A stretch of DNA of 64,000 nucleotides from positions 1,007 to 65,006 of the forward strand of contig NZ_DASQDY010000434.1 of the NCBI RefSeq assembly GCF_035633935.1. The letters are read 5' to 3'. Both the position numbers and the translations under genes were made by a program. Below, piece by piece: positions 1,798 through 39,523 of the stretch. Every line of letters starts with the position of its first letter. The first letter of the stretch is position 1. The notes beneath the pieces were generated by a model that had not been told where the DNA came from, did no database searches, and was given only the letters and a program-made list of their open reading frames with translations. The stretch comes from Archangium sp. (GTDB lineage Bacteria > Myxococcota > Myxococcia > Myxococcales > Myxococcaceae).

Positions 1798-2651
1798 GGG
1801 GACACCTTCAGCCCATCGAGTTGCAGCGTCCGGGGGCCGTCCTCCTCCAGGGTGAGTGAAAAGCAACGGACGCCCTCTGGCAGTGGGGCGATGAAAGCGT
1901 GGAACTGCTTTCGACCTGACACCCCAGAGGAGATGCGTGGGGGCAGGCTCTCGGCTCCCGAGGGTGACTCCTGACGGCACCCCGCCTCCAACCGGGCCCG
2001 GATGAGTTGCCAGGGCGTGGAGTGGGGCCAGTCGGCCTGAATGAGCACCGTCACGAAGAGAAGCCCGTCCATCTGGAGGACGGAAACGGCCGAGGCCCGG
2101 ATGCCACTGACGTACCGGGTGACCTGCTCGCGATCCGGAATGTCGAGGGCCAGCTTGGGAGGGGCGCCTGCTGGCCCGTGGCTCGCGAGCAGTCTCCTGG
2201 CGACGGCGCCCACCTCGTTGGCGTCCGCCGCATCCACCTGCTGGAGCAACACCCGGGACACCCAGGCCTCGGCGTCCACCGCCTCCTCGCGGGTGACGAG
2301 CGCCAGTGTCAGGGTGAGGGACTCGCCGGCCTTGGTGCGTCCCGTCACCGGGAGCAGGAGGCGCTCCCCCTGGGCCAGGTCGCGCAGGGGGGAGACGACC
2401 AGGGAGCCCTCTCCCAGCGGGGCCACCTCGACGCGCCCCTGGAACTCGGGCCCTGGGCGTGCACGCGGCTCCAGGAGGTCCGCGAAGCGCAGCCGGGTCA
2501 CCGTGCCCGCGGCCACGTACAGCACGGGAGGCGCTTCCGGCTGACCCGCGACGAGCAGGGTGCCCCGCCGCGATACCCGCTCGGAGGCCTGTGCGGCTGT
2601 CGTGGAGACGAGGAGGAGCCAGAGCAGGAGGAGACAGGGACGAGGGCGCAT
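1794..2651 (-). CDS. DUF2381-family protein (secreted, myxobacterial kinase partner)
   Basis: ATG 2651 preceded by GGAGG; signal peptide MRPRPCLLLLWLLLVSTTAAQA; LYVAAGTVTRLRF...VDAEAWV pattern; coupled to the kinase, the usual context of this family. Confidence 0.75.
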   Translation of the reverse strand: MRPRPCLLLLWLLLVSTTAAQASERVSRRGTLLVAGQPEAPPVLYVAAGTVTRLRFADLLEPRARPGPEFQGRVEVAPLGEGSLVVSPLRDLAQGERLLLPVTGRTKAGESLTLTLALVTREEAVDAEAWVSRVLLQQVDAADANEVGAVARRLLASHGPAGAPPKLALDIPDREQVTRYVSGIRASAVSVLQMDGLLFVTVLIQADWPHSTPWQLIRARLEAGCRQESPSGAESLPPRISSGVSGRKQFHAFIAPLPEGVRCFSLTLEEDGPRTLQLDGLKVSP

Positions 2652-2839
2652 GAAGCCTCCGGGAGGAGGCGGCACGGTAAGGAGCCCGTCAGCGCCGGGC
2701 AAGGACGACGTGACTCCTGTGGTCACGCCGGAACAGAGGACTCGAAAAATAGAGCCCCCTCATGCTCTGTCTCAATCGTCATACAGCCCTGCCAGAAACT
2801 CCAGCAGCGTCGGCGAAGACATCGTGAGACCGGGTGGCC

Positions 2840-3676
2840 TCACTCCCCACGGGACTTGAGTTGCTCCAGTTCGCTCTGGAGTTCCGCCAGCCGGCGCTCT
2901 GCTTCCTGGCGTCGGCGTACCTCTTCCGCGCGCTGATGCTCCGCCTCCTCGCGTCGGCGTACCTCTTCCGCGCGCTGCCGGGCCTCCTCGTCCACTCGCC
3001 GCTGGACCCCGTCCAGCATCTCCCTCAGCCGCTCGTTCATCTCCTCCGACTCCAGCAGCAGGGCGCGGCCCGCCCAGAAGCGCAGTCTTCCTCCCTCCAA
3101 CTGCAGGTCCAGCCCCAGCACCTCCGAGGTGTACCGGCCCTGCCTCGACTCCATCCGCTCGTACTCCCTCGCCTTGGGCGAGGGCAGCCGGTACGCCTCC
3201 AGCCTCTCCCGCGCCCGGTCGTAGATGAAGTACTCGGGTATCCCCAGCCGGGCGTAGCGCCGCACGTTGTACTCGGCGTCCTTCTTGCGATCGCCGCCCA
3301 CGTGCACCTCCATCACCCAGTCCAGCCCCTTGCCCTCCTGGCTCACCACCCACTTGCCGCGCGGGTGCGTCTCGGCGTCCAGCACCACCAGCAGATCCGG
3401 CGCGAAGCGCCTCTCGCCCGGGTAGTAGATGGGCAGCTCCGCGCCCACGTACACCCGGCGCCGCTGCTGCTTGAAGTAGCCCCGGAGTGCATCCAAGGCC
3501 TGCCGCTTCCCCTCGTAGTGCAGGTCCCCCTCCGGCATCGCCATCTCATCCCACGTCACCTCCGCGGGAAGGGACTCCACCACCTGTTCCCTCTCCTCCA
3601 TGCTCATCGCCTCCCACTCCTGCTGTGTGGGGGCTCGGGGAAAGGTCTCCGCATCACTCCGTCGGTCGTGCGCCAT
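2840..3676 (-). CDS. Uma2 (DUF820) family endonuclease-like protein with C-terminal coiled coil
   Basis: MPEGDLH, FAPDLLVV, VMEVHVGGDRKKD, YARLGIPEYFIYD motifs; charged RAEE repeats at the C-terminus. Confidence 0.88.
   Translation of the reverse strand: MAHDRRSDAETFPRAPTQQEWEAMSMEEREQVVESLPAEVTWDEMAMPEGDLHYEGKRQALDALRGYFKQQRRRVYVGAELPIYYPGERRFAPDLLVVLDAETHPRGKWVVSQEGKGLDWVMEVHVGGDRKKDAEYNVRRYARLGIPEYFIYDRARERLEAYRLPSPKAREYERMESRQGRYTSEVLGLDLQLEGGRLRFWAGRALLLESEEMNERLREMLDGVQRRVDEEARQRAEEVRRREEAEHQRAEEVRRRQEAERRLAELQSELEQLKSRGE
2909..2977. repeat. Tandem repeat, 42-bp period, within the Uma2 coiled coil
   Basis: GCGTCGGCGTACCTCTTCCGCGCGCTG occurs exactly at 2909-2935 and 2951-2977. Confidence 0.9.
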
Positions 3677-4268
3677 ACCCTCGCAGCGTGAGGCGGGTGA
3701 CCTCCCAGGTCAATCTCCCGCCGCCCTTCCCGTCACCCGCCCAACCTCGTTTCCCGAGGTCCTTCCGCCCGCGGCCCGCTGCTGGCGGTAGCGCGACACA
3801 GAGCAAGTCACGGGCCGGACCCGGCGCGCCCTGCCTCCCGAGAGAAGCGGTCCGCGCCACGCCGTCGACCCAGCCCGCAGGCACGGACTCGGCGTCCGGC
3901 AGCGGAGATGCCGCTGCCTGGAACAATGAACCCCCGCCCCGCTGGCGAGAGAGCCACGCACGGCCCTGCCCGTTTTCGCCGCGGGAGCCGCCCGCCTCGT
4001 GCATTCCAGAAAACGGGTTCGGGCTCGGCTCTGGGCCTGGAAGTGGCACAACGCGCTCTGCGGACCAACGACTACCGCGTCCTCGGCTCGACCCAGGAGT
4101 TCCGTGAGTTCAAGCTTCCGATTGACCTCCCGGGCGATAATTCCTTGTCACACTTCTACCTGGAGAAGACGGTCAACAAGAACCCCCGCTGCCCGGGCCT
4201 CCGCCCACCGCATGCAAAACCGGGTTAAAATGCGATCTCGGAATACCTGACCGAAAGGGAACAGAGCC

Positions 4269-5582
4269 ATGGGCAATCGTCGATATGAAGTACCGCGGGT
4301 GGGGAGTTGGCAGTTGGTACTCGCGGGTATGGCCGCCACGTTCGTCGCCTGCGGGGCAGACGCGGGTGGACCGGAGGAGCGCTCGGGCACGGTGCAGCAG
4401 GCTCTCTCGACCTGCTCGTACACGATCACGACGAACACCTACCAGGGCAGCCCTGAGTACTGGGGCACGATCACGTTCCGCAACACCGGCACGAGTGCCA
4501 TGACGAGCCCCCAGATCGCCTTCAGTGTCCCCAGTGGCGTGGTCTGCGATTACGACGAGCCGGGGTGGACGCACACGCAGAGCGGCACGACCTGCACGTA
4601 CTCGAGGACCTCGAGCCTGACGATTGGCGTGAACGCTTCGTACACGTTCTACTACTCCACGAACTCAACCGCATCGTTCACGGCCGCCAACGTCCAGATC
4701 AGCGACCCCAGTTGCGGTGGGAGCGGGAGCGGCGGGTTGACCGCCAACCAGAAGAAGGTGGCGGAAGCCCTCACCAGCATCTGGGAGAACGACACGCCCG
4801 CCATCAACTACGCGTACTCGGAGAACATCTACGACGGCCGCGGGTACACGAACGGGCGCGCGGGCTTCTGCACCGGGACGGGCGACGCAATCATGGTCAT
4901 CGAGTGCTACAATGGCCTGCGGAGCGCCGCCAACGGCAACCTGATGGCCAGGTACATGCCGGGGCTCACCACCATCAACAACCGCTTCCTCTCGACGGGC
5001 GAGTCCCAGGCTTCGACGGCCGAGCTCGACGTGATCGGCAACTGGCGAAGCGATTGGGCCGCGAGCTACAACAACACCACCACCCGGGCGGACTTCAAGA
5101 GCTGCCAGGATCAGATCAACGACCGCCTCTACTACACCCCGGCGATGAACGAGGCCATGAAGTGGGGGCTCACCACGGCGCTCACGAAGGCCGCGCTGTA
5201 CGACGCGTTCATCAACCACGGGGAGGATGGTGCCCGGTCCCTCATCTCGGCCGCCAACTCCGCCCTCGGCAATGCAGGGCAGGTGGCGCCCGTGATTGGC
5301 TACAACGGCATCACCGAGAACGCCTGGCTGCAGAAGTTCCTCGAGAAGCGCCGCAACACGCTCGCCGCCGATTCGACGTGGATCGAAGCAGTCGATCGTG
5401 TCGCCGCCTACGAGAAGCTGCGCAGGCAGGGCAACTGGAGCCTGGCCACGGCCTTCAGGAACGATGTCCGCGCCCGGGACTGCTGGGGCACGGCCTACCC
5501 GAGCAGTGGGTACACGGTGCGCAACATCAACCCTGACGGGACCTGGAGCACACCGAGTTCGTACACCTACTCGTGTAACTAG
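4269..5582 (+). CDS. Chitosanase (GH46) with N-terminal CBM2-like module, probable lipoprotein
   Basis: YSENIYDGRGYTNGRAGFCTGTGDA matches the GH46 signature; Thr/Trp-rich beta module (YWGTITFRNTG...W..TQSG); GSGSGG linker; FVAC lipobox-like motif. Confidence 0.85.
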   Translation: MGNRRYEVPRVGSWQLVLAGMAATFVACGADAGGPEERSGTVQQALSTCSYTITTNTYQGSPEYWGTITFRNTGTSAMTSPQIAFSVPSGVVCDYDEPGWTHTQSGTTCTYSRTSSLTIGVNASYTFYYSTNSTASFTAANVQISDPSCGGSGSGGLTANQKKVAEALTSIWENDTPAINYAYSENIYDGRGYTNGRAGFCTGTGDAIMVIECYNGLRSAANGNLMARYMPGLTTINNRFLSTGESQASTAELDVIGNWRSDWAASYNNTTTRADFKSCQDQINDRLYYTPAMNEAMKWGLTTALTKAALYDAFINHGEDGARSLISAANSALGNAGQVAPVIGYNGITENAWLQKFLEKRRNTLAADSTWIEAVDRVAAYEKLRRQGNWSLATAFRNDVRARDCWGTAYPSSGYTVRNINPDGTWSTPSSYTYSCN

Positions 5583-28799: not shown

Positions 28800-28853
28800 C
28801 ATCCAGCAGCGCGGGCCCTCTAATCCGTGAAGTATCCCCTCTGGGGGGAGGAC

Positions 28854-30500
28854 ATGATGGAGTTCGATTGCGACTGGCTCATCATCGGCTCGGGCTTCGG
28901 GGGCAGCGTGAGCGCCCTGCGCCTGACGGAGAAGGGCTACCGCGTGGTGATGCTGGAGAAGGGCCGGCGCCTGCGGGCGCAGGACTTCCCCAAGACGAAC
29001 TGGAACCTGAAGCGGTGGCTGTGGATGCCACAGCTCGGGTGGCGCGGCCTGTTCAAGATGACCTTCTTCCGCCACGTCACCGTGCTGTCCGGCGTGGGCG
29101 TGGGCGGGGGCTCGCTGGTGTACGCCAACACGCTGCCCATTCCGAAGGATGACTTCTTCCAGGCGCGCTCCTGGGGAGCCCTGGCGGACTGGAAGACGGA
29201 ACTGGCGCCGCACTACGCCACCGCGCGCAAGATGCTCGGGGCCACGGTGAACCCGCTGCGCACGCTGCCGGATGAGATCATCCAGCAGGTGGGCAAGGAG
29301 ATGGGCCGCGAGGACTTCCAGCCCACCACGGTGGCCGTCTACTTCGGCAAGCCAGGGGAGACGGTGCCGGACCCGTACTTCGGCGGCGAGGGCCCCGAGC
29401 GCACCGGCTGCAACGCCTGCGGCGGCTGCATGACGGGCTGCCGCTTCAACTCCAAGAACACCCTGGACAAGAACTACCTCCACTTCGCCGAGAAGCGCGG
29501 CCTCACCCTCCACGCGGACACCGAGGCCACGTGGGTGCGCCCGTTGCCCGGCGGCGGCTACGAGGTGAAGGCGCTCGAGGGAACCTCGCGCTTCTCCCGC
29601 CGCGAGCGGCGCTTCACCGCGCGTCACGTCATCTTCTCCGGCGGGGTGCTGGGCACGGTGGATCTGCTGCTCAAGCTGAAGGCCCACCCGGACGGCCTGC
29701 CCCGGCTGTCGGACCGGCTCGGCGATGGCGTACGCACCAACTCCGAGGCGCTCATCGGCGTGGTGGCCGGCAAGCGCTTCCACGACAAGGATCTGTCCAG
29801 GGGCATCGCCATCGGCTCCATCCTCCACACGGACGAGCACTCGCACCTGGAGCCGGTGCGCTACTCCGGGGGCTCGGACTTCTTCCGGACCCTGATGGCG
29901 CCCCACGTCGGTGGCGCCACCGCCCTGTCGCGGCTGGCGAACCTGGCTGGCCTCTTCCTGCGCCACCCGTTCAAGTTGATCCGCTCCTGGTTCACCCGCG
30001 ACTTCGCCCGGCGGTCGATGATCCTCCTCTACATGCGCACGCTGGACGGGCACCTGCGCATGCGGCGCGGGCGCGGGCTCTTCACCGCGGGGCGCGAGGG
30101 GCTCACCACCGGTCTGCAGGAGGGCCCCGCTCCCACCGCCCACATCCCCGAGGCCACCGAGCTGGCCCACCGGGTGGCGGAGAAGCTGGACGGCATTCCC
30201 ATGACCCTGGCCTCCGAATCGGTGATGGGCATCCCTACCACCGCCCATATCCTCGGTGGCTGCTGCATGGGGGACTCGCCCCAGACGGGCACCATCGACT
30301 CCCAGCACCGCCTCTTCGGCTACGAGGGCCTGTACGTCATCGACGGCTCCGCCATCTCCGCCAACCCGGGGGTGAATCCCTCGCTCACCATCACCGCGCT
30401 CGCTGAGCGCGCCATGACCTTCATCCCCGCCCGGCAGCAGATGGACTCCGGGGCCCAGGTGAAGGAGGTCGTCGCGCGTCCCGCCGTGCTCGGGGCGTGA
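28854..30500 (+). CDS. GMC oxidoreductase, cholesterol oxidase-like
   Basis: IIGSGFGGSV FAD motif, GVGGGSLVYAN, CNACGGCMTGC, TAHILGGC, NPSLTITALAERA. Confidence 0.88.
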   Translation: MMEFDCDWLIIGSGFGGSVSALRLTEKGYRVVMLEKGRRLRAQDFPKTNWNLKRWLWMPQLGWRGLFKMTFFRHVTVLSGVGVGGGSLVYANTLPIPKDDFFQARSWGALADWKTELAPHYATARKMLGATVNPLRTLPDEIIQQVGKEMGREDFQPTTVAVYFGKPGETVPDPYFGGEGPERTGCNACGGCMTGCRFNSKNTLDKNYLHFAEKRGLTLHADTEATWVRPLPGGGYEVKALEGTSRFSRRERRFTARHVIFSGGVLGTVDLLLKLKAHPDGLPRLSDRLGDGVRTNSEALIGVVAGKRFHDKDLSRGIAIGSILHTDEHSHLEPVRYSGGSDFFRTLMAPHVGGATALSRLANLAGLFLRHPFKLIRSWFTRDFARRSMILLYMRTLDGHLRMRRGRGLFTAGREGLTTGLQEGPAPTAHIPEATELAHRVAEKLDGIPMTLASESVMGIPTTAHILGGCCMGDSPQTGTIDSQHRLFGYEGLYVIDGSAISANPGVNPSLTITALAERAMTFIPARQQMDSGAQVKEVVARPAVLGA

Positions 30501-30600
30501 GCTTCACGGCGGTTTCTTCGCTCAAGACGAGCTTCTTCCTCGATGACACCGCGCTGAGCATCACTCGGTAGTCGATCATTCAGGGCTCGAAGTTCCCGGC

Positions 30601-30641
30601 GGCGCGGGGGAGGCAACACGGCCCCCGCGCCGTTTTCATTT
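30601..30641 (+). terminator. Putative intrinsic terminator after the oxidase operon
   Basis: GGCGCGGGGG (30601-30610) pairs with CCCCCGCGCC (30622-30631), followed by GTTTTCATTT. Confidence 0.55.
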
Positions 30642-30758
30642 CCGGGCGACAGACTCGCGCGAGGCGCCTTGACGTCTCCAGCCAACCTGGACACCCTCGT
30701 GACGGTTTTGGCGGAGAGGCTCGGGCCCGATCGCACTTCTCCGCGTGAAGGAGATGTC

Positions 30759-31237
30759 ATGTCGCGGATTGTATTGACGCTGTGGCTGGCCGCTGGAGTG
30801 TGGACGGGCTGTGGGACGACCCAGAAGGAGCCGAGGCTTGTCCTCCGACAGGGGACGGCACAGGCGTGTGCGCGCCATCCGTGGCTTTGCGCGGGCTACG
30901 ACTCTCAGGACGCATGGCGTCGTGCTCTCGAGGCTGCGAGAGCAGCCGATGCGCTACTGGCCTACCAGTGTCTTCTCTAAAGCGGATCCCGAAGAGACGA
31001 TCAAGCGACTCGACGAGCATATTCATAAAGTCGAGAGTGTTTGTCCCTCCGGCAATCCAGACCCGAAAGATCCGAAACATCAAAAATGTGAATCACTGGA
31101 AGAAAGAGATTCGTGCCTTCGTGAAGAATTTGAAGCAAATGCTCAAGCGCATGCCCAACAACAAAGCCAAGCGTCAACCTGTCGAAGGAGCAATCAGGCG
31201 TGGGGATAATGCTCTGGAGCGCTGGGGCGGTTCATGA
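30759..31237 (+). pseudogene. Frameshifted lipoprotein with toxin-like C-terminus
   Basis: GAAGGAGA RBS, MSRIVLTLWLAAGVWTGC signal and Cys; protein-like sequence moves through three frames (AYQ / VFSKADPEETIKRLDEHIHKVE / VNHWKKEIRAFVKNL); final stop overlaps the next ATG. Confidence 0.6.
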
Positions 31238-31554
31238 TTGACGAGGAGAAAGCACAGGTTCTTACTCATGTTTTGGAACGTGCCATGGTCAAGGTCGTTC
31301 CGGACGACAAGGTCCGCGATGAGATGGCCTTTCACATCTCGGATGTGTTGAGGGATTTTCTCCAGATAAGTCCTGTGGTTGAGAAGGCCTTCGAAGAAGG
31401 CGAGTTGTCGCGAGGTGATGTGGATGCGATCTTGTCGCTGCTGCTGTCTCATTGGCCATATCACTTGAAAGGACTCGCGAGGTTGCGGAAGAAATTGAAT
31501 GCCGAGCCTCGGAGAAAGAAACAGCCCGCACGTCGAGTTCCTGGTCGAAGGTGA
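31234..31554 (+). CDS. Small helical protein, putative immunity protein
   Basis: 106 aa, ATGA-coupled to the upstream toxin-like frame; EMAFHISD...LLSHWPYHL; lower GC. Confidence 0.6.
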   Translation: MIDEEKAQVLTHVLERAMVKVVPDDKVRDEMAFHISDVLRDFLQISPVVEKAFEEGELSRGDVDAILSLLLSHWPYHLKGLARLRKKLNAEPRRKKQPARRVPGRR

Positions 31555-31825
31555 CCTCGAGTGAGTCACGTTCCGGTACGCGGGCCCGCGCGAAGGTCTC
31601 ACTGCGCGTGCGTGCACACGGTGTTCCAGGAGATGACGGGAGCACAAACTGCGATTCCCGAGCGTCTGGACGATACGGACGACGCGGCCAACCAACTCAT
31701 GCGCCCGAGGCTGGTGTCCACAGGCAATGGGTCACTGGTACTCTTCGAGGATGACCGGAGCGGCTGGCGTCGAATCCGCATGAGTCGCTGGCGGTAATGC
31801 TGGATGCATTTGGCCGATAGGGCTC

Positions 31826-32214
31826 CTAATCGAGGAAGCGACGCTGCCAGCGGCGCATATTCTCGTCGCTGAAGCCATGGAACCGGAAGCGCTCCTCATA
31901 CCACCAGGGTTCGAGCACACGCGCCAGCTCGCGGTACGCGGGGAGTGTCTGGCCCTGCTCCAGATCTCCTGCCTCGGGCCAGGGGCCGAGTGTCACCACG
32001 GCGCGCCCGGCTTCCAGTTCCTGCACGGTGGTGCTGGGCGAGCGCAGCCGGGAGCGCAGGTTCGCCACGCCGCCCAGCTCGCCCAACACGGGCTGCCCCA
32101 GGAAGTTCATCCACGCCGCATGTAGAAGGTGAGGCCCACGCTCTCGCGGATGCGCAGGATGCGCCCGGTGTCGAAAACACCGGAGCGACGGATCCGAGGG
32201 TAGTGCTCGCTCAT
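31826..32214 (-). pseudogene. DUF3396-type immunity gene with large internal deletion
   Basis: N-terminus MSEHYPRIRR...IRESVGLTFYMRR (ATG 32214, GAGGAG RBS) joined out of frame to the C-terminus MNFLGQPVLGELGG...LPAYRELARVLEPW...MRRWQRRFLD. Confidence 0.75.
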
Positions 32215-32225
32215 CGCTGGACTCC

Positions 32226-32444
32226 TCACTGGATTCCGTAAATGGGATGAATGATCACGGGTTGCTCTTCTCCTCCCAGCCCCGCATAGAGCTGTCTTTG
32301 ATCTCTCGGGTGATGAGGGTGGCCTCAGCGGTAGGAATTCCAGGATCCAAACTTTTCAGCCGGGCAGGGAAATTTGAGGTCGTAGATGCGCTGGACCTTG
32401 TTCGGGTCGCCCGCGGCGTGAATCACCACGTCCGGCACGAGAGC
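32226..32444 (-). pseudogene. C-terminal relic of a PD-(D/E)xK-type polymorphic toxin
   Basis: Manual translation LVPDVVIHAAGDPNKVQRIYDLKFPC...YR*GHPH...IHPIYGIQ*; no start codon; in-frame TGA at 32325-32327; lies directly upstream of the DUF3396 relic. Confidence 0.7.
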
Positions 32445-34325
32445 TCACTGCACCCGTACCATCGTCCAGGGTTCATAGAGCACCAGCCCCTGCGGCTCCC
32501 GGAGCCCGATTTGGTACCAGAGCTTTCCCTCCGAGATGTTCGACGGCTCTCGCCAGTGGGGGCCTGTTCCGAAGTAGGGCCCATCGAACTCGTGGTGGCT
32601 GGACGTCTCGTCCGAACGGAAGCGGCAGACCACCTCCCAGCCCTCGGGCACCTTGCCATCCACAATGGTCCGGATGCCCACCTGTCCAGACTCGCGCTCC
32701 ACGGCTCCTCGCGGGCGCGGGAGTGTGTCGATGACCTCACGGCGGCGCTCCACCTGTTCGTCCAGGTACGCGAAGAAGTCGTCGAACACCTGGGACAGGT
32801 CGATGCCCGCAGTCTGGAATGCGTCCTGCCACGCCAGGGCACCCTCCAGTCCCTCGGGTGCGTCCTTCCTCCCGAGTGCCGCGAGGACTCTCGCCGGGGC
32901 TCCGTCTCCATGCCGCCGCACCAGCACTTCGATGAAAGCCCTCCCCAGTGGGTACACCTGGTTCTCGTCACGCTCGGCCGCGAGTTTCTCCACATCGAGC
33001 AACTCCTCGGTCTTCACCTCGCGCCGCGCACGGGCCGCCGCGGCGATCAACTGGTACTCCTCCTCCGAGCCGGGTGCGTAGAAGAAGCGGTACTCCACGT
33101 AGCTGGCCAATCCCTCGCTGAGCAGCTTCATGCTCGTCAGGCGGGGGGCCGCATCCGCCCCGGCGATGCGCTGGGCGAGTACGTGTGTCGTCTCGTGTCC
33201 GAGCACCGCGAGCGCTTCATCGGGCCTGGAAAGCCCGGCGAGGTTCATCCGGAGTGTGTTCCAGTAGGCCGTGCCCGCCGTGTGTCTCGCGCTCCCGCCG
33301 AGGTTCGCGCGGATGGGGTCTCCCGCCTCCACCCCGAGGAAGGCGCGGACCTTCTCGAAGACTCCATCCGCTCCATCCAGGAGCGGCTCGGCGCGCTTTC
33401 GCAGGCTGGCGGGGTAGGTGAACTGGTAGTGCCCCGTCGCCGCCTGCGCGGTGGCCGCGGTGGGGAATTCCACCTTGGGGCCCTCGCCGCCGCTGTCCTC
33501 CACGGCTCCGTCGCTCCCGGCCCACCGGGCGAAAACCCCGATGAACAGGCCGACGGTCGCGAGCGTGGCCAGGGTTCCCATCCACGAGCCCCGCAGCCGC
33601 CGCTGGACGGAGGCGGTCAGCCGCTCGCCCCACCCGAGGAACTGCGCCAGGGCCAGGCCGAGCAGCACGCAGGCCACGGAAAGCTGGAGGCTCAGGGCCT
33701 CCACGGGCCAGCGCCAGTGGGTTCCCTCGAATTCCGGCGCCGTGAGGTGGAACGGATTGAGGGCGGACAGCCACGGCACCTGGTCCTCGAGGATCGACTG
33801 GCCCAGCATCAGCACCGCCAGCGCCGTCCAGCAGAGCCGCCTCAGGGGCGCCAGCGCCAGCGCCAGGGCGAGCACCGTGAGCGCCTGCGCCACCCGCAGC
33901 ACGGAGGCCACCGCCATCACATCCAGGTGCAGGCCCGGATCGAGCGAGGTTCGGGAGAGGGCATGATGGCCGATCACCCACAGCGTCACCCCGAGCGGGT
34001 ACACGAGCACGGTGGCGAGCGCGACGAGCAGCTTCACCCAGAAGAGCGTCCACCGAGAGGTGGGCAGGGCGTCCAGGAACTCCAGCGTGCGGTCATCCTG
34101 CTCGCGCACGAGCAGGCCGCTGCCCAGCGCGAACGCGAGGATGAAGGTCAGCAGGGACAGGTCGCCGTCCGGTTTGAACCGTGACTCGAAGGTCTCCGCG
34201 TAGGGCGAGAACCCCAGGGGCTCGAGCCACAAGGCCGAGGGTACCTCGACCACGATGAAGAAGAGCGCGAGCCAGAGGAACGGCCGCTGGTCACGCACTT
34301 CCTTGGCCACGAGTGGGCGGATCAT
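32445..34325 (-). CDS. ABC-2-type permease fused to a gluzincin peptidase domain
   Basis: MIRPLVAKEVRDQR, multi-TM N-terminus, EQDDRTLEFLDALP; HETTH (33183-33197) followed by LSEGLASYVE. Confidence 0.8.
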   Translation of the reverse strand: MIRPLVAKEVRDQRPFLWLALFFIVVEVPSALWLEPLGFSPYAETFESRFKPDGDLSLLTFILAFALGSGLLVREQDDRTLEFLDALPTSRWTLFWVKLLVALATVLVYPLGVTLWVIGHHALSRTSLDPGLHLDVMAVASVLRVAQALTVLALALALAPLRRLCWTALAVLMLGQSILEDQVPWLSALNPFHLTAPEFEGTHWRWPVEALSLQLSVACVLLGLALAQFLGWGERLTASVQRRLRGSWMGTLATLATVGLFIGVFARWAGSDGAVEDSGGEGPKVEFPTAATAQAATGHYQFTYPASLRKRAEPLLDGADGVFEKVRAFLGVEAGDPIRANLGGSARHTAGTAYWNTLRMNLAGLSRPDEALAVLGHETTHVLAQRIAGADAAPRLTSMKLLSEGLASYVEYRFFYAPGSEEEYQLIAAAARARREVKTEELLDVEKLAAERDENQVYPLGRAFIEVLVRRHGDGAPARVLAALGRKDAPEGLEGALAWQDAFQTAGIDLSQVFDDFFAYLDEQVERRREVIDTLPRPRGAVERESGQVGIRTIVDGKVPEGWEVVCRFRSDETSSHHEFDGPYFGTGPHWREPSNISEGKLWYQIGLREPQGLVLYEPWTMVRVQ

Positions 34326-36175
34326 CGGATCTCCCTCCGTTCCGCGAGCAGGCGGATGGGACACCCCAGCGTCTCGGACTCCACCTGCACCACGAACAGC
34401 CACCGGTCCCCTCGTGCGAGCCCCCGCGGAAGCCTCGCCCCACCCGGGGAGGGCACCGTGTCCTGCCGGGAGAGCTCGTGCGGAGCCACCTCGTGCTCGA
34501 AGGGCTTCAGCTCGTGGTGGAGGAGCGCGTACCTGGCGGGATGCTCCCTTCCTTCCTCCGTCTGGAGGGTGTGCTCCAGGCGGAAGGTCTCCGCCGACTC
34601 CGCCACGAGTGTGAGCGCGGGGCGCATCCCGGCCAGGCGCTCCAGTTCCTTCGGATGGGTCTCGCGGTCCCCACGGAGGGCCTCGCGCCAGAGCCGCGCC
34701 AGCTCGTCCTCGGAGGACCCGCCCCGCTCGCGCAGCAGCGAGGCCAGCCGCGGCTCATTCCAGAGTCCCCAGAGGCCCGTGCCGGGAGGTCCGGCCAGGA
34801 TGCGCCGCATCACCGCGCGGAAGGACTGCTCCCCGAGTTGCTCGTGCAGCACCTGGACTCCCCGGGCGGCCAGTGCTCCCGACAGGCAGGGACCGAGGCG
34901 CTCGCGCGTGGTCAACCAGCCCCGGGAATCGAAGTCCTCCCGCGAGGCCACCGCGGCCCTCATCGACAGCCGCTCCTCCTCGTCCCGGTGCGCCCACCAC
35001 GTGGTGAAGCCATCGAGGAGCCACTGCCGCTCCTCCCGCAGCACCACGCCCTCGCTGGCCTCGATGAGCACCTCGCGGAAGAGGAAGGCCTCGAAGGCGC
35101 GCGGGTCGAAGTCCGGGGCCGCGAGGTTCGCCCGCACGACGACTCCATCCGCCTTCTCGAGCTTCGCGCGCTGGAACACGTCGGCGTCGAGCTCGCGGAT
35201 GGGCAACACCGCCACGGCCGGAAGCCGCTCGAGCCCGAGGTAGTCGCTCAGCGCGAGCAGGTCCTCCGCGAGCCGCTCCGCCATCCGCCGGGCCTGCTCC
35301 CTCGGAAACCCCACTCCGGAGGCCACCTGGACGGCCGACTCCTTCACGCCGGCCTTCTCCGCTTCGTGCAGCGCGAAGGGCTGGCGCTTCTTCGCCTCGT
35401 CCATCATGGAGATGACCGTGAAGAGCCCGACCATGACACACGCGATGAATACCTTCTCCCGGTGGCTCATCCGCTGGGAGAACAGCTCGGCGAGGGTCCC
35501 GTCCCGATAGAGGACCAGCCCGAAGCAGAGCGCCCCCACCGCCGCCGTGAGGGCCCAGCACGGAAACAGGTCGTCCCAGGGGATGCGGTGGCGCTCGAAG
35601 GCGAAGTCGGCGCCGAGCAGCGCGAATGGCCCGGTCTTGGAGAGATCGAGCTCGGTGAGGTGGTCCGCCGCGAAGGCGGCGATGACCAGGAAGATGTAGA
35701 GGGGGTTGCGATAGCGGCCGAGCAGCCCGGCGAGTGCGAAGAAGCTCCAGCCCAGCAGCACCGGGGTGCCCGCACGCAGGGCGAGGAGGAGGACGAAGCG
35801 GGCGGAGACCTCCTCGTGCTCCCGGGCCCGGCTCCAGAGGACGAGCAGGCTCAACGCCAGGGGGAGCAGCAGCACGGCCACCCCGAGCACGAGCTTGGTG
35901 ACGAGGATGCGCGTGCGCGAGAGGGGAAGTGCCGCGAGGAAGAGCTGGGTCCGCTGGCCATACTCGCGCACCACCAGACGGTGGGCCGCGAAGAGGGCTC
36001 CCACGCTGCAGAGAAGCAGCGTGGGCACCCGGAGCAGCTCGAACGGGCTGCCTTTCTCGGCGTGGTGCTCCTCTGTCACCAGCATGAGGAGCAGCAGGAT
36101 TCCGAAGAGGAGGTTGAGGAGCAGCCACGAGCCCCGGTGCTCGCGCCACTCCTTGAGGAGGAGGGCCCGGCTCAT
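34322..36175 (-). CDS. ABC-2-type permease with degenerate peptidase-like extracellular domain
   Basis: MSRALLLKEWREH, REYGQRTQLFLAALP, multi-TM; FREVLI...WLLDGFTTWW where HExxH...EG would be expected. Confidence 0.75.
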   Translation of the reverse strand: MSRALLLKEWREHRGSWLLLNLLFGILLLLMLVTEEHHAEKGSPFELLRVPTLLLCSVGALFAAHRLVVREYGQRTQLFLAALPLSRTRILVTKLVLGVAVLLLPLALSLLVLWSRAREHEEVSARFVLLLALRAGTPVLLGWSFFALAGLLGRYRNPLYIFLVIAAFAADHLTELDLSKTGPFALLGADFAFERHRIPWDDLFPCWALTAAVGALCFGLVLYRDGTLAELFSQRMSHREKVFIACVMVGLFTVISMMDEAKKRQPFALHEAEKAGVKESAVQVASGVGFPREQARRMAERLAEDLLALSDYLGLERLPAVAVLPIRELDADVFQRAKLEKADGVVVRANLAAPDFDPRAFEAFLFREVLIEASEGVVLREERQWLLDGFTTWWAHRDEEERLSMRAAVASREDFDSRGWLTTRERLGPCLSGALAARGVQVLHEQLGEQSFRAVMRRILAGPPGTGLWGLWNEPRLASLLRERGGSSEDELARLWREALRGDRETHPKELERLAGMRPALTLVAESAETFRLEHTLQTEEGREHPARYALLHHELKPFEHEVAPHELSRQDTVPSPGGARLPRGLARGDRWLFVVQVESETLGCPIRLLAERREIR

Positions 36176-37119
36176 GTCTCGTCCGACCGCCGCGCGTAGG
36201 CGAGGAAGATGTTCTCCAGGGACAGCGCCTCCACCGCCTCCGGGGCGAAGGGATGGGTGGTCCAGTCCGCCGGTGCGCCGAAGAGCACCAGGGCCAGGCG
36301 CCCATCGGGCAGGCGCTCGCGCCTCACGAGGGAGAAGCCGTGCGGCAGGGGTTCTGGTGGACTCTCCCGCACCACCCGCCGGACCGACTGGCGGAGCGTG
36401 TCGAGGCTCCCCTGGAAGCGCAGCCGGCCGTCGTGGAGGATGCCGATGCGGTGCGCCACCTCCTCCACCTCGCCGACGAGGTGGGACGAGAAGAGCGCGG
36501 TCTGTCCCTCGCGCCGGACCTGCTCGCGGAGGATGTCGAGGAACTCGCGCCGCGCCACCGGATCCAACCCGGCGGTGGGCTCGTCGAGGATGAGCAGCGG
36601 CGGGCGGTGGGCCAGCGCGAGCGCCAGTCCCAGCTTCATCCGCGTGCCGCCGGAGAGCTGCGCGGACTTGCGGTCCTTCGGTACGTCCAGCACCCGGAGG
36701 AGCCGCTGGAACCGCGCGTCGTCCCAGTGCGGGTAGAAGCCGGAGACGAACCGCCCCAGCTCGAGCGCCGTCATCCAGGGGTAGAAGACCTGCTCCTGCG
36801 ACACGTAGCCGAGCTGCTGCTTCTGGGCCGCGCGCACCCGGCGGACCCGCTGGCCCATCAGCTCGATGTCACCCTGGTCCGGACGGAGGATGCCCATCAG
36901 CATCCGGAGCGTGGTCGTCTTCCCCGCGCCGTTGCGGCCGAGGAAGCCGTAGACCTCGCCGCGCCGCAGTTCCAGGTCCACCCCGTCCACCGCCTTCACC
37001 TCGTGGAAGGCGCGGGTGAGCCCCTGGGTGCGGAGGATGACCTCCGGCTCGGGGGTGGGCTCCGGCGGTGGCGGCACGTCCGGTGGTGGGGTGGGCAGCG
37101 GCTCGGAGACTTCGGACAT
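36172..37119 (-). CDS. ABC transporter ATP-binding protein (exporter type)
   Basis: GRNGAGKTT, LSGG, LILDEP, SSH. Confidence 0.95.
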   Translation of the reverse strand: MSEVSEPLPTPPPDVPPPPEPTPEPEVILRTQGLTRAFHEVKAVDGVDLELRRGEVYGFLGRNGAGKTTTLRMLMGILRPDQGDIELMGQRVRRVRAAQKQQLGYVSQEQVFYPWMTALELGRFVSGFYPHWDDARFQRLLRVLDVPKDRKSAQLSGGTRMKLGLALALAHRPPLLILDEPTAGLDPVARREFLDILREQVRREGQTALFSSHLVGEVEEVAHRIGILHDGRLRFQGSLDTLRQSVRRVVRESPPEPLPHGFSLVRRERLPDGRLALVLFGAPADWTTHPFAPEAVEALSLENIFLAYARRSDET

Positions 37120-37150
37120 GGGCGGGAGTCTATGCGCTTTTTCGAGTGGT

Positions 37151-37570
37151 TCACGGCGGGGTGTTGAGCTCCCGGAGCACCTCTCCGGCGTGCCTCGCCT
37201 CGCCCGGCACCAGGGCCAGGTCGTCCAGGCTGATGAGGCCCACCGGCTTCTTGTACGCGTCGAGCACCACCAGACGCCGCACCGCCTTCTCCTCCATCAG
37301 GTGCTCGGCCTCGGAGATGGGGGCCTCCGCGTCGCAGGTGATGACGGTGTGGGTCATCGCCTCTCGCACCGGCGTCTTGTTCGGGTCCTTGCCCGCCGCC
37401 GTCGCACGCACGGTGATGTCCCGGTCCGTCAGCATCCCCACGAGCTGCTCTCCGTCCATGACGGGCAGCGCCCCGATTCCGTACGAGCGCATCCGCTCGG
37501 CCGCCGCGCGCAGGGGCGCATCCGCCTCGATGGTCTCCAGGCCCTGCGTCATCAGCTCGCCGATCCGCAT
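37151..37570 (-). CDS. CBS-domain protein
   Basis: MRIGELMT, GALPV...GMLTDRDI, VRRLVV...GLISLDDL. Confidence 0.9.
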   Translation of the reverse strand: MRIGELMTQGLETIEADAPLRAAAERMRSYGIGALPVMDGEQLVGMLTDRDITVRATAAGKDPNKTPVREAMTHTVITCDAEAPISEAEHLMEEKAVRRLVVLDAYKKPVGLISLDDLALVPGEARHAGEVLRELNTPP

Positions 37571-37654
37571 CCGCCGCCTCCTCGGGGCGCTCCGTGCCCT
37601 CGTGTGTTCCTGGATTCCCACGTGCAATCCCTCCGCCGTGTGTGCCGCCCCGGC

Positions 37655-38623
37655 TCAGGCCGGTGCATGCAGCCCGGGATCGGGCTCCACGCCCAGCCAG
37701 GTGAAGTCCGGCATGTGCTCGTGCAGGTACTCGCGCATGCTCGCGATCAGCCCCGCCTCCACCTGGCGCGCCCGCTCGCGGCTGACCCGGAAGTGCTTCC
37801 CGATGGTCTGCAGCGTCTCGGGTTCCTCGGCCAGCAGCCGGTGCTCCAGGATGTAGCGCTCGCGCTCGTCGTGCAGCGCGTGGGCGAAGTCGTGGACCTT
37901 CTCCTGGAACCAGCGCGTGAGCTCCCGCCGTCCGAGCTCCTCATCCACGGCCGGTCCGCCCGAGGGCAGTGCGCGGCTCGGGGCGGGGCGGCCCTTCTCG
38001 TCATCGGGGGCGGCCGCGTCGAGCCGCACATCGTCCTGGCGCAGCCGCTGATCCATCTCGACGACGTCTTCCTCGGGGACGCCCAGACGCGCGGCCAGCA
38101 GCCCGGGGGTCGCCTCCTGGCCCGAGGCGAGCAGGCGGCCCTCTTCCTCCCTCATCCGGAAGAACAGCTTGCGCTGCACGTCCGTGGTCCCCAGCTTCAC
38201 CAGCCGCCAGTTCTCGATGATGAAGCGCAGCAGGTAGGCGCGGATCCACCAGGCCGCGTAGGTGTACAGCCGTACGCCGCGCTCCGGCTCGAAGCGCTCC
38301 ACGGCGATGACCAGGCCCAGGTTGCCCTCCTGGATGAGGTCCATCAGGAGGAGGGGAGAGCGGTGGTGCTCGCGTGCCAGCTTCACCACCAGCCGCAGGT
38401 TCGAGGCCACCAGCCGGGCGCGGGCCTTCAGGTCGCCGTGTTCCCGGAAGCGCCGGGCGAGCGCTGCCTCCTCCTCCCGGGACAGGAGGGGGTGCCGCCT
38501 CACTTCCTCCATCCACGTGTCGAGCAGCGCGCGATCGCCGGGCGTCAGCTCCCCGCGATGGGAGCGGCGATGCCTCGGAGGCCGCGCCAGTCGGGCGGGG
38601 CGGAAGTGGGGGACCGGAAGCAT
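37655..38623 (-). CDS. RpoH/sigma-32-family RNA polymerase sigma factor (paralog)
   Basis: SNLRLVV, DLIQEGNLGL, YAAWWIRA, QRKLFF RpoH box, SRERARQVE. Start uncertain (38623 or 38512). Confidence 0.88.
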   Translation of the reverse strand: MLPVPHFRPARLARPPRHRRSHRGELTPGDRALLDTWMEEVRRHPLLSREEEAALARRFREHGDLKARARLVASNLRLVVKLAREHHRSPLLLMDLIQEGNLGLVIAVERFEPERGVRLYTYAAWWIRAYLLRFIIENWRLVKLGTTDVQRKLFFRMREEEGRLLASGQEATPGLLAARLGVPEEDVVEMDQRLRQDDVRLDAAAPDDEKGRPAPSRALPSGGPAVDEELGRRELTRWFQEKVHDFAHALHDERERYILEHRLLAEEPETLQTIGKHFRVSRERARQVEAGLIASMREYLHEHMPDFTWLGVEPDPGLHAPA

Positions 38624-38827: not shown

Positions 38828-39523
38828 ATGAGTGGTCGCCTGGTCTTTCCGGATATCCCCCATGAGCGCCCGGCGTACTCGCCGTGGCTGGACCCGCTGT
38901 GCAAGGTGGCGAACGGTGTCGTCTATGGGCTGACCCGCGCTCTGGGGGGCTGGACACGATTCGACTGGCACCCCTCTCTTGCCACCCGCCTGCATGACGA
39001 GCGATGCCACGCCCGCCCCGTGCTGCTGATCGCCTGGCACCGCTTCAACTTTGTGCTCGCGGCGGCGCTCCTGCAGGTGCCCTCGGAACTGAGGCCCAGC
39101 CTGCTGATGCATGACGGGCTTGCCTCCCGCGCCTTGACCCATGAGTCGAGCGTCTGGGGGGGCTTCGAGGTCTTCGCCTATCGCCGTCGCGCCGCCACTC
39201 CCCCCCGCGTCCAGATCCTCGAGTACTTGCGGTCGAGCCATCGCAACCTCTTGATGCTGCCCGACGCGGGAGGACCCTACGGCAAAGTGAAGCCGGGAGT
39301 CGTGGAGATCGCGCGAGCCACAGAGGCCCTGGTGCTCCCCCTTTCGGTGCGGGTGGACCGTGCCTGGCGGCTGGGCTCCACACTGAGCCACGTCTTGCCC
39401 AGGCCTGGTGCCCAGGCTCGGATCCTCGTGGGAGAGCTGCTGGAGGGCACGGCGCTGCGTGTCGAGGACTGCCAGGAGGCGCTCGATCGTCTCGAGAGCC
39501 CAGCTCCTGAGAGGGCCCCTTGA
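38828..39523 (+). CDS. DUF374/lysophospholipid acyltransferase-like protein
   Basis: LLIAWH, LMLPDAGGPYGKVKPGVVEIARAT, LPRPG pattern, divergent from the usual DGPRGP. Confidence 0.6.
   Translation: MSGRLVFPDIPHERPAYSPWLDPLCKVANGVVYGLTRALGGWTRFDWHPSLATRLHDERCHARPVLLIAWHRFNFVLAAALLQVPSELRPSLLMHDGLASRALTHESSVWGGFEVFAYRRRAATPPRVQILEYLRSSHRNLLMLPDAGGPYGKVKPGVVEIARATEALVLPLSVRVDRAWRLGSTLSHVLPRPGAQARILVGELLEGTALRVEDCQEALDRLESPAPERAP

Follow-up and report, generated by a model that had tools for sequence, protein, structure and literature searches.

A three-gene ABC-2 module of Archangium with an apparently live and an apparently dead peptidase-like domain on paralogous half-permeases

In the 64,000-nucleotide stretch of Archangium sp. 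DNA analysed here (contig NZ_DASQDY010000434.1; the whole stretch is referred to below as the window), positions 32445-37119 are spanned by three open reading frames (ORFs), which lie on the minus strand in the order A-B-C and code for an ATP-binding cassette (ABC) ATPase and two half-permeases. We conclude that A-B-C is a split version of a known type of peptidase-fused ABC-2 transporter, in which one half-permease carries an apparently live and the other an apparently dead peptidase-like domain; for the known type itself we found no functional study. The genes are the following:

36172-37119, minus strand: gene A, ABC ATPase, 315 amino acids (aa) (PF00005, E 2e-31)
34322-36175, minus strand: gene B, 617-aa half-permease with a dead peptidase-like domain (165 homologs; mean predicted local distance difference test score, pLDDT, of the AlphaFold2 (AF2) model 89.9)
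32445-34325, minus strand: gene C, 626-aa half-permease with an intact gluzincin site (mean pLDDT of the AF2 model 85.2)

The first-pass annotation of the window had described an ATPase and two ABC-2-like permeases coupled by ATGA overlaps, each permease with a large outer domain. The ORFs lie exactly as it had them, and both junctions are ATGA overlaps: the start of B overlaps the stop of A (GACATGAGCC), and the ATG of C, at 34325, overlaps the stop of B (CCGATGATCC). A longer, GTG-initiated ORF for C was considered and rejected, because homologs of C are 623-629 aa long and cover the 626-aa form completely; we therefore place the start of C at the ATG. The G+C content of the window is ca. 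70%, and the nearest homologs of the operon proteins come from Archangium, with 80-92% identity.

The outer domains of B and C differ at what would be the active site of a zinc peptidase. The positions concerned are:

33183-33197, minus strand: H377-E378-T-T-H381 of C, presumed two zinc ligands and catalytic base; invariant
33114-33116, minus strand: E404 of C (with G405), presumed third zinc ligand, 22 residues after H381; invariant
32952-32954, minus strand: Y458 of C, candidate transition-state Tyr, 81 residues after H377; invariant
35063-35077, minus strand: R367-E-V-L-I371 of B, aligned by hhalign with HExxH of C; the columns vary among homologs
35009-35035, minus strand: helix E381...W385..D388-G389 of B, in which D388-G389 (35009-35014) are aligned with E404-G405 of C in the profile alignment

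Residues H377, E378, H381, E404, G405 and Y458 of C are invariant in 63 out of 63 orthologs taken from genome contigs. The HExxH motif is present in all 54 database homologs, and HExxH followed by EG was found in 137 of 141 further C representatives at 50% identity, the four exceptions being fragments that begin past the motif. The His-to-Glu spacing is 22 in most C-type proteins (139 of 151). The role of Y458 is presumed from M1 enzymes, since H297 and Y381 of PepN are separated by about the same distance. Judging from these residues, the C domain looks catalytic.

The situation in B is different. The first-pass annotation had taken HETTH of C and REVLI of B to be equivalent, and profile-profile alignment does superpose the two motifs. 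The replacements from C to B at aligned positions are H to R, H to I, E to D and Y to G (G433 stands opposite Y458). No His was found at the HExxH-equivalent site in 118 aligned B homologs; three B homologs hold an HExxH elsewhere (around residues 481-498) and not at the equivalent site. Across 63 loci, the sole invariant periplasmic residue of B is E381, while W385, D388/G389, W420 and G428, located on and around the helix equivalent to the third-ligand helix of C, are near-invariant. Since the B domain is present in every locus, with a mean pairwise identity of 27% in the periplasmic domain versus 33% in C, and since E381 is invariant, the domain is not decaying. By the alignments, then, the B domain is a predicted pseudoenzyme, i.e., a peptidase fold whose metal ligands and catalytic residues have been replaced and which is kept under selection, and most likely only the C domain would be able to bind zinc and hydrolyse.

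The architecture of the two half-permeases was derived from AF2 models built on family alignments, which were compared by Foldseek with the PDB. In both models the outer part consists of a mixed β-sheet followed by a helical bundle, in a thermolysin-like layout, and then by a terminal β-sandwich. The chains are divided as follows:

35393-36175, minus strand: membrane domain of B (aa 1-261), seven helices; ABC2_membrane_2 at E 9.5e-4, below the cut-off; homologous to the membrane domain of C
34628-35392, minus strand: predicted periplasmic thermolysin/M1-like domain of B (aa 262-516) without a zinc site; hhalign to the C domain and Foldseek
34325-34627, minus strand: C-terminal β-sandwich of B, Fn3-like (aa 517-617); AF2 strands at 517-615, TM-score to Fn3 ca. 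0.5-0.6 on the target
33513-34325, minus strand: membrane domain of C (aa 1-271), seven helices; PF12679 at 28.9 bits (cut-off 27.2) and PF12730
33459-33512, minus strand: linker of C (aa 272-289), DGAVEDSGGEGPKVEFPT; the sole segment with pLDDT below 50, unconserved
32715-33458, minus strand: predicted periplasmic thermolysin/M1-like catalytic domain of C (aa 290-537); Foldseek and family profile
32448-32714, minus strand: C-terminal β-sandwich of C (aa 538-626); AF2 strands at 538-624

Foldseek retrieved 40 matches for C at E≤1e-3, nearly all of them M1 enzymes (IRAP with E 4e-5 and probability 1.00, ERAP1, PepN and PfA-M1); C also matched the M60 proteins ZmpB and ZmpC. The top ten matches of B are all M1 enzymes, among them IRAP, ERAP1, ERAP2 and tricorn factor F3 (best E 1.8e-3, probability 1.00). 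The family profiles of B and C align by hhalign at 99.7% (E 9e-27), colinearly over 529 columns that include the C-terminal parts, and the C-terminal parts alone align with E 6e-6. Thus, the second domain, whose fold the first-pass annotation had presented as a point to be checked, does have the peptidase fold. Because BLASTP of B against C covers only ca. 60 membrane residues, profiles were needed to reveal the paralogy. The profile of the C family also lays HETtHV...EGLAsYve on HELAHQW...NEGFASYVEY of aminopeptidase N (E 0.07).

Scans of whole proteins and of excised periplasmic parts against Pfam and NCBIfam assigned no peptidase family to B or C; at HExxH they gave noise-level matches to M48 (E 0.03-0.05) and SprT-like families. 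A phmmer search of B and C against PDB sequences returned nothing meaningful. PF26999, which is listed for one B homolog in precomputed annotation, was set aside, as it was not reproduced by the Pfam scan. Existing annotations of family members go no further than "ABC transporter permease" or "hypothetical protein". On these profile searches, the outer domains of B and C can be described as a peptidase-like family that has no Pfam or NCBIfam model.

To define the distribution of the module, a pattern and tblastn scan with one genome per species was carried out, which gave 73 loci; their ORFs were classified with hidden Markov models (HMMs) of B and C and, for A, by phmmer. The genes A, B and C follow each other on one strand in 62 of the 73 loci, which are all the loci with intact genes and enough flanking sequence. 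Seven loci are truncated by the end of a contig immediately upstream of C, and four are frameshifted or rearranged contigs of metagenome-assembled genomes (MAGs) that still hold pieces of both B and C. The loci come from Myxococcota, Planctomycetota, Verrucomicrobiota, Acidobacteriota, Gamma- and Betaproteobacteria and one spirochaete, i.e., from at least six phyla. The asymmetry is universal among them: the C-type protein has HExxH, and the B-type protein lacks it at the equivalent site. The asymmetry of an active and an inactive domain described in the first-pass annotation is borne out by conservation, HExxH not being kept in both proteins in 62 of 62 intact loci, with a single duplication behind the pair. 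In a maximum-likelihood tree of 63 B and 63 C proteins, the two form separate clades that are reciprocally monophyletic (Shimodaira-Hasegawa-like approximate likelihood ratio test, SH-aLRT, 100). It follows that one duplication, and one loss of the zinc site, took place before the sampled diversity arose.

The same data bear on the possibility that B and C are not paired at all but form separate A2B2 and A2C2 homodimers with separate functions, so that the asymmetry would lie between machines rather than within one. Many ABC-2 half-permeases are indeed homodimeric, and a contact between B and C is deduced rather than seen. However, B and C are never found apart in the 62 intact loci from six phyla, the order A-B-C is fixed, there is one ATPase gene, and the genes in the Archangium window are coupled through ATGA. 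Furthermore, both clades of the tree hold the same 63 loci and one duplication explains it, while one-chain fusions, described below, share the logic of two membrane halves with one peptidase. We therefore regard separate homodimers as very unlikely. One locus, L072 (uncultured Burkholderiales MAG, positions 2579-4855), was considered as a candidate A-C locus without B and rejected, since a C-terminal piece of B remains. There, the C-type gene directly follows the ATPase ORF, and the last ca. 75 residues of B overlap the end of that ORF. This locus is a broken or rearranged contig, due either to a deletion in the organism or to an assembly artefact, and not a homodimeric variant.

An HMM search found one copy of B and one of C in the host genome. 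Among 1.84 billion representatives, the periplasmic part of C matched 428 clusters at 50% identity, nearly all of them proteins of 600-650 aa with the domain in the same position. Since nearly all matches have this length and placement, the C-type domain is essentially confined to the half-permease architecture of A-B-C.

Each permease has seven predicted hydrophobic helices, which would correspond to the six-helix ABC-2 core plus one extra helix that would carry the C-terminal domain outside. PF12679 is matched by all 46 C family members scanned; B alone reaches 18.9 bits on this model, which is below the cut-off. By its homology to C (hhalign 99.7%), B is nonetheless classed as a predicted ABC-2 permease, and the membrane part of B matches KpsM and a mycobacterial ABC-2 efflux pump in Foldseek. 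The cytoplasmic side of B contains the conserved motifs R66..E71..TQLFLExLPxSR87 and G153-R-Y-R156. According to hydropathy and charge distribution, the K/R-rich segments of both B and C are the N-terminus and the loops TM2-3 and TM6-7 (TM, transmembrane helix). Because these would lie inside, the C-terminal parts of ca. 350 aa are predicted to be periplasmic, in line with the large outer domains of the first-pass annotation, and both permeases are predicted to have N-in/C-out topology. The 18-residue linker of C is acidic, Gly-rich and modelled as disordered. The matching segment of B (aa 262-280) is conserved and well modelled, with F267 and L269 present in at least 90% of homologs.

The ATPase A scores 109.7 bits on PF00005 (cut-off 25) and has intact motifs: Walker A G61RNGAGKT, signature L155SGG, Walker B LLILD179E180 and H-loop S212H. 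Its N-terminus is a Pro-rich tail of ca. 28 aa. It is closest to ATPases of the ABC-2 type (PmtA, DrrA, NatA-type, lantibiotic-protection and NodI) and falls below all equivalog cut-offs.

Taken together, we consider it fairly probable that the operon encodes an A2-B-C machine that has a single periplasmic catalytic centre, in C, with B as a non-catalytic partner, and in which delivery of a peptide-type substrate is coupled to ATP. In such a machine, a heterodimer of paralogous ABC-2 half-permeases, resembling a type V exporter and of the NosY/COG1277-like kind, would be powered by two ATPase copies, and the seventh helix of each permease would place the thermolysin/M1-like domain and the β-sandwich at the periplasmic face of the inner membrane. 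The loss of both His, the Glu ligand and the Tyr from the B domain would have happened once, ahead of the spread of the family, and the domain would have been retained ever since as a non-catalytic partner. Driven by the ATP cycle, a peptide or an amphiphile that bears a peptide would leave the cytoplasm or the membrane and enter, at the axis of the dimer, a chamber whose walls are the two periplasmic domains. There, B would hold or cap the substrate and C would cut it, probably as an endo- or oligopeptidase. Assembly of the heterodimer, the peptide nature of the substrate and the coupling of transport to cleavage are the parts of this scheme that we infer.

Several points weigh against this scheme. 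The heterodimer and the shared chamber are deduced solely from the facts that the three genes co-occur, are translationally coupled and include one ATPase gene. At 4e-5 and 2e-3, the E-values of Foldseek are modest, the TM-scores are low on account of the multidomain full-length models, and the link to M1 at the sequence level is marginal (E 0.07). No conserved neighbour gene in the 73 loci hints at a substrate. Finally, machines of the ABC-2/NosY type are not always transporters, since NosDFY acts on a periplasmic partner.

In the main alternative, nothing is transported and A-B-C is an ATP-powered periplasmic protease, the ABC-2 heterodimer serving as a mechanotransmitter (cf. FtsEX-EnvC, LolCDE, MacB and NosDFY). 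The ATP cycle would open and close a clamp made of the live and the dead domain, which would seize and cut periplasmic or membrane-anchored proteins. The ordered connection of B and the 18-residue linker of C, with pLDDT below 50, would in the models fit a fixed jaw and a mobile jaw, though movement of the domains is purely hypothetical. In favour of a protease, the profile of the membrane domain touches NosY, though only with E 1; against it, the Foldseek matches include KpsM and the mycobacterial ABC-2 efflux pump, and the membrane fold of FtsEX, MacB and LolCDE is type VII, whereas ABC-2 folds are mostly true exporters. The retention of a dead domain under selection, for which the LytM domain of EnvC is comparable, and the lack of a conserved precursor or substrate gene nearby agree with such a protease. 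On balance, we consider it rather unlikely.

A further reading is that A-B-C represents an unrecognised class of ATP-driven envelope protease, in which an ABC-2 motor and the live and dead domains form one composite gated chamber, and E381 of B acts in trans on substrate anchoring or on the active site of C. We hold this to be improbable; if true, however, the class would give the ATP-free periplasm, in membrane-tethered form, an equivalent of the ATP-dependent proteases that it otherwise lacks.

We also looked for clues to function in the genomic context of the operon. A total of 1806 flanking ORFs from the 73 loci were clustered, and no family was present in more than 10 loci or at a fixed position; the most frequent flanking family occurred in 10 of the 73 loci, on either side and on either strand. 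The genes next to the operon in the window are:

37151-37627, minus strand: CBS-pair protein, 158 aa, 31 nt upstream of the start of A
ca. 37655-38620: sigma-70-family gene, upstream of the CBS gene
28827-30500: GMC oxidoreductase, on the downstream side of the operon

The CBS gene shows synteny in Archangium relatives, but no conservation outside the family; it may be co-transcribed with A. A terminator-like hairpin has been reported at 37117-37134, on the opposite strand. Further upstream, between the genes of the sigma factor and of an NtrC-type regulator, lies a 231-aa ORF (38828-39523, plus strand) that has no Pfam match at E≤1e-3.

On the other side, the region 30500-32444, between the stop of C and the GMC oxidoreductase, has a G+C content of 62%. 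The stop codon of C is exactly where homology to eight Archangiaceae loci ends, and the DNA beyond varies by strain. In L006 only ca. 390 bp of this region are left (31162-31555, with a 106-aa ORF), directly abutting the oxidoreductase, and L001, L002 and L005 have several kb of other DNA at the equivalent place. From these comparisons, 30500-32444 looks like an insertion hotspot.

The first-pass annotation had connected the operon with toxin relics beside it. This connection is not supported: homology ends at the stop of C, the flank is strain-variable, and the 73 loci have no conserved neighbour. Since the strain-variable island starts past the stop of C, the putative relics give no functional clue. 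The roles suggested in the same annotation, namely detoxification of peptide antibiotics, signal processing or toxin defence, are speculative. The context also bears on the idea that A-B-C is a resistance or immunity pump, which would extract membrane-active peptide antibiotics or bacteriocins from the outer leaflet, in the manner of LanFEG or BcrAB, and degrade them there; such a pump would be one particular physiological form of the A2-B-C explanation. The hosts are soil and water bacteria rich in peptide warfare, and A resembles lantibiotic-protection, phenol-soluble modulin (PSM)-export and daunorubicin-type ATPases, although below the cut-offs. The operon does adjoin, in this strain, a variable island with putative toxin/immunity-like relics, but the island is strain-specific and begins only past the stop of C. 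Moreover, no two-component sensor, bacteriocin or immunity gene is conserved beside the operon in the 73 loci, and PADLOC contains no model for B or C and gave generic ATPase similarity only. The single copy and the vertical-looking synteny in Archangiaceae suggest a housekeeping role more than accessory defence. A resistance or immunity function is, in our judgement, quite improbable.

Among Gram-negative bacteria of soil and water, ABC-2 transporters fused to a peptidase are very common; they were catalogued in 2013 (TC 3.A.1.145; TC, Transporter Classification). The split A-B-C version amounts to a natural experiment, in which a half-transporter with its peptidase was duplicated, one site was killed once, and the resulting pair of live and dead domains was kept family-wide in at least six phyla. 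Because the pair is kept throughout the family, having exactly one catalytic centre per transporter is probably of functional importance, and the dead domain probably has its own task. Separate B and C subunits are easier to dissect than fusions of 1200 aa, and A-B-C could reveal how the energy of cytoplasmic ATP serves periplasmic proteolysis or processing.

We finally compared A-B-C with known systems. With the M1 zinc aminopeptidases, such as PepN, ERAP1, IRAP, LTA4H and tricorn factor F3, the C domain shares the HExxH helix, the glutamate helix EG[LF]ASYVE and a Tyr ca. 81 residues downstream. It differs in that its third ligand is at +22 and not at +18, in that the equivalent of the GxMEN strand reads AG[TLQ]A[YFNH]W, and in that both the M1 N-terminal domain and the ARM-repeat cap domain are absent. 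PF01433 did not match B or C, whole or as excised domains, even at E≤10, and B, with REVLI, does not have the HExxH of M1. Of the M1 label used in the first-pass annotation, the M1-like fold therefore stands, while GxMEN, the +18 spacing and a match to Pfam Peptidase_M1 are missing. Judged by these signatures, the outer domains of B and C are better described as M1-like gluzincins than as members of M1, and since GxMEN, the anchor of the substrate amino-terminus, is missing, C would probably be an endo- or oligopeptidase rather than an aminopeptidase.

Another gluzincin family, PF13485 (Peptidase_MA_2), gave no match for C and consists of standalone secreted or lipoprotein gluzincins that, unlike C, are not fused to transporters. 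The host genome encodes a standalone lipoprotein-like PF13485 protein of ca. 294 aa with an LLTGCAS lipobox-like motif (G000 C234:1881-2894, plus strand). Its core, HELTH...REGMASY, makes it the only other protein of the genome found by the C-family HMM (E 5e-7), and it may be a free-living relative of the fused C domain.

Pairs of live and dead domains are known elsewhere. In the mitochondrial processing peptidase (M16), a catalytic subunit is combined with a degenerate paralog (alpha/beta), and EnvC, a partner of the ABC machine FtsEX, has a catalytically dead LytM domain. As proposed for B/C, a partner without metal ligands is kept for substrate handling or regulation; in contrast to B/C, the domains belong to other folds and clans, FtsEX is type VII, and the domains are not fused to permeases. 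A parallel among exporters is provided by peptidase-containing ABC transporters (PCATs), in which a C39 cysteine peptidase, facing the cytoplasm on a homodimeric type IV exporter, cuts leader peptides prior to transport; HlyB has a degenerate C39-like domain. PCATs thus resemble A-B-C in the fusion of a peptidase to an ABC exporter and in the existence of live and dead versions, and PCAT cleavage is coupled to export. In A-B-C, however, the domain has a zinc peptidase fold and would face the periplasm from an ABC-2 heterodimer, and a live and a dead version would be combined in one proposed complex.

Full-text literature searches found no study of the live/dead half-permease architecture and no paper in which a fusion of the TC 3.A.1.145 type was tested. 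That permease-M1 fusions are known, as the first-pass annotation had stated, is correct (TC 3.A.1.145.1; PMC3924187). TC 3.A.1.145 was created for Q1D520 of Myxococcus xanthus, a protein of 1200 aa with 13 transmembrane segments in which ABC-2 is fused to an M1 peptidase, and the function of this founding member is unknown (Getsin et al. 2013, PMC3924187). The NCBI annotation of the type is "ABC transporter permease/M1 family aminopeptidase". In A-B-C as in TC 3.A.1.145, ABC-2 membrane domains are followed by an extra helix and then by an HExxH gluzincin domain at the C-terminus, which is presumably periplasmic; each transporter has one active peptidase, and the gene of its ATPase lies immediately upstream. 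GxMEN is likewise rare in both, being found in none of 120 TC 3.A.1.145 fusions and in 1 of 162 C-type proteins. The Archangium genome itself encodes a protein of the TC 3.A.1.145 type (G000 C163, L080:368-3937, minus strand) of 1190 aa, with PF12730 and PF01433, the motif HEVAH and no GxMEN; an ATPase gene lies upstream of it (L080:3954-4862).

The differences are as follows. TC 3.A.1.145 proteins are single chains of ca. 1190 aa with 12+1 transmembrane helices and a single PF01433 domain, whereas A-B-C has two chains of ca. 620 aa, each with a peptidase-fold domain, one of them dead. In profile-profile comparison, C aligns with the second membrane half of the fusions (E 1.7e-5, 79%) and B with the first (E 1.3e-4, 54%), the similarity being confined to ca. 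100-160 membrane columns. The HMMs of B and C miss the fusion of their own genome at E≤1e-3. The fusion family is also the larger one, with more than 7500 significant matches among 8000 candidates, compared with ca. 430 clusters at 50% identity for the B/C family. Membership of A-B-C in TC 3.A.1.145 was therefore rejected, on account of the two ca. 620-aa chains, the failure of the HMMs to find the own fusion and the partial, membrane-only hhalign match. As far as the profiles allow one to tell, the A-B-C family is either a distant split relative of TC 3.A.1.145 or a parallel invention that follows the same logic of two membrane halves and one working peptidase, and one active site per transporter appears to recur across both designs.

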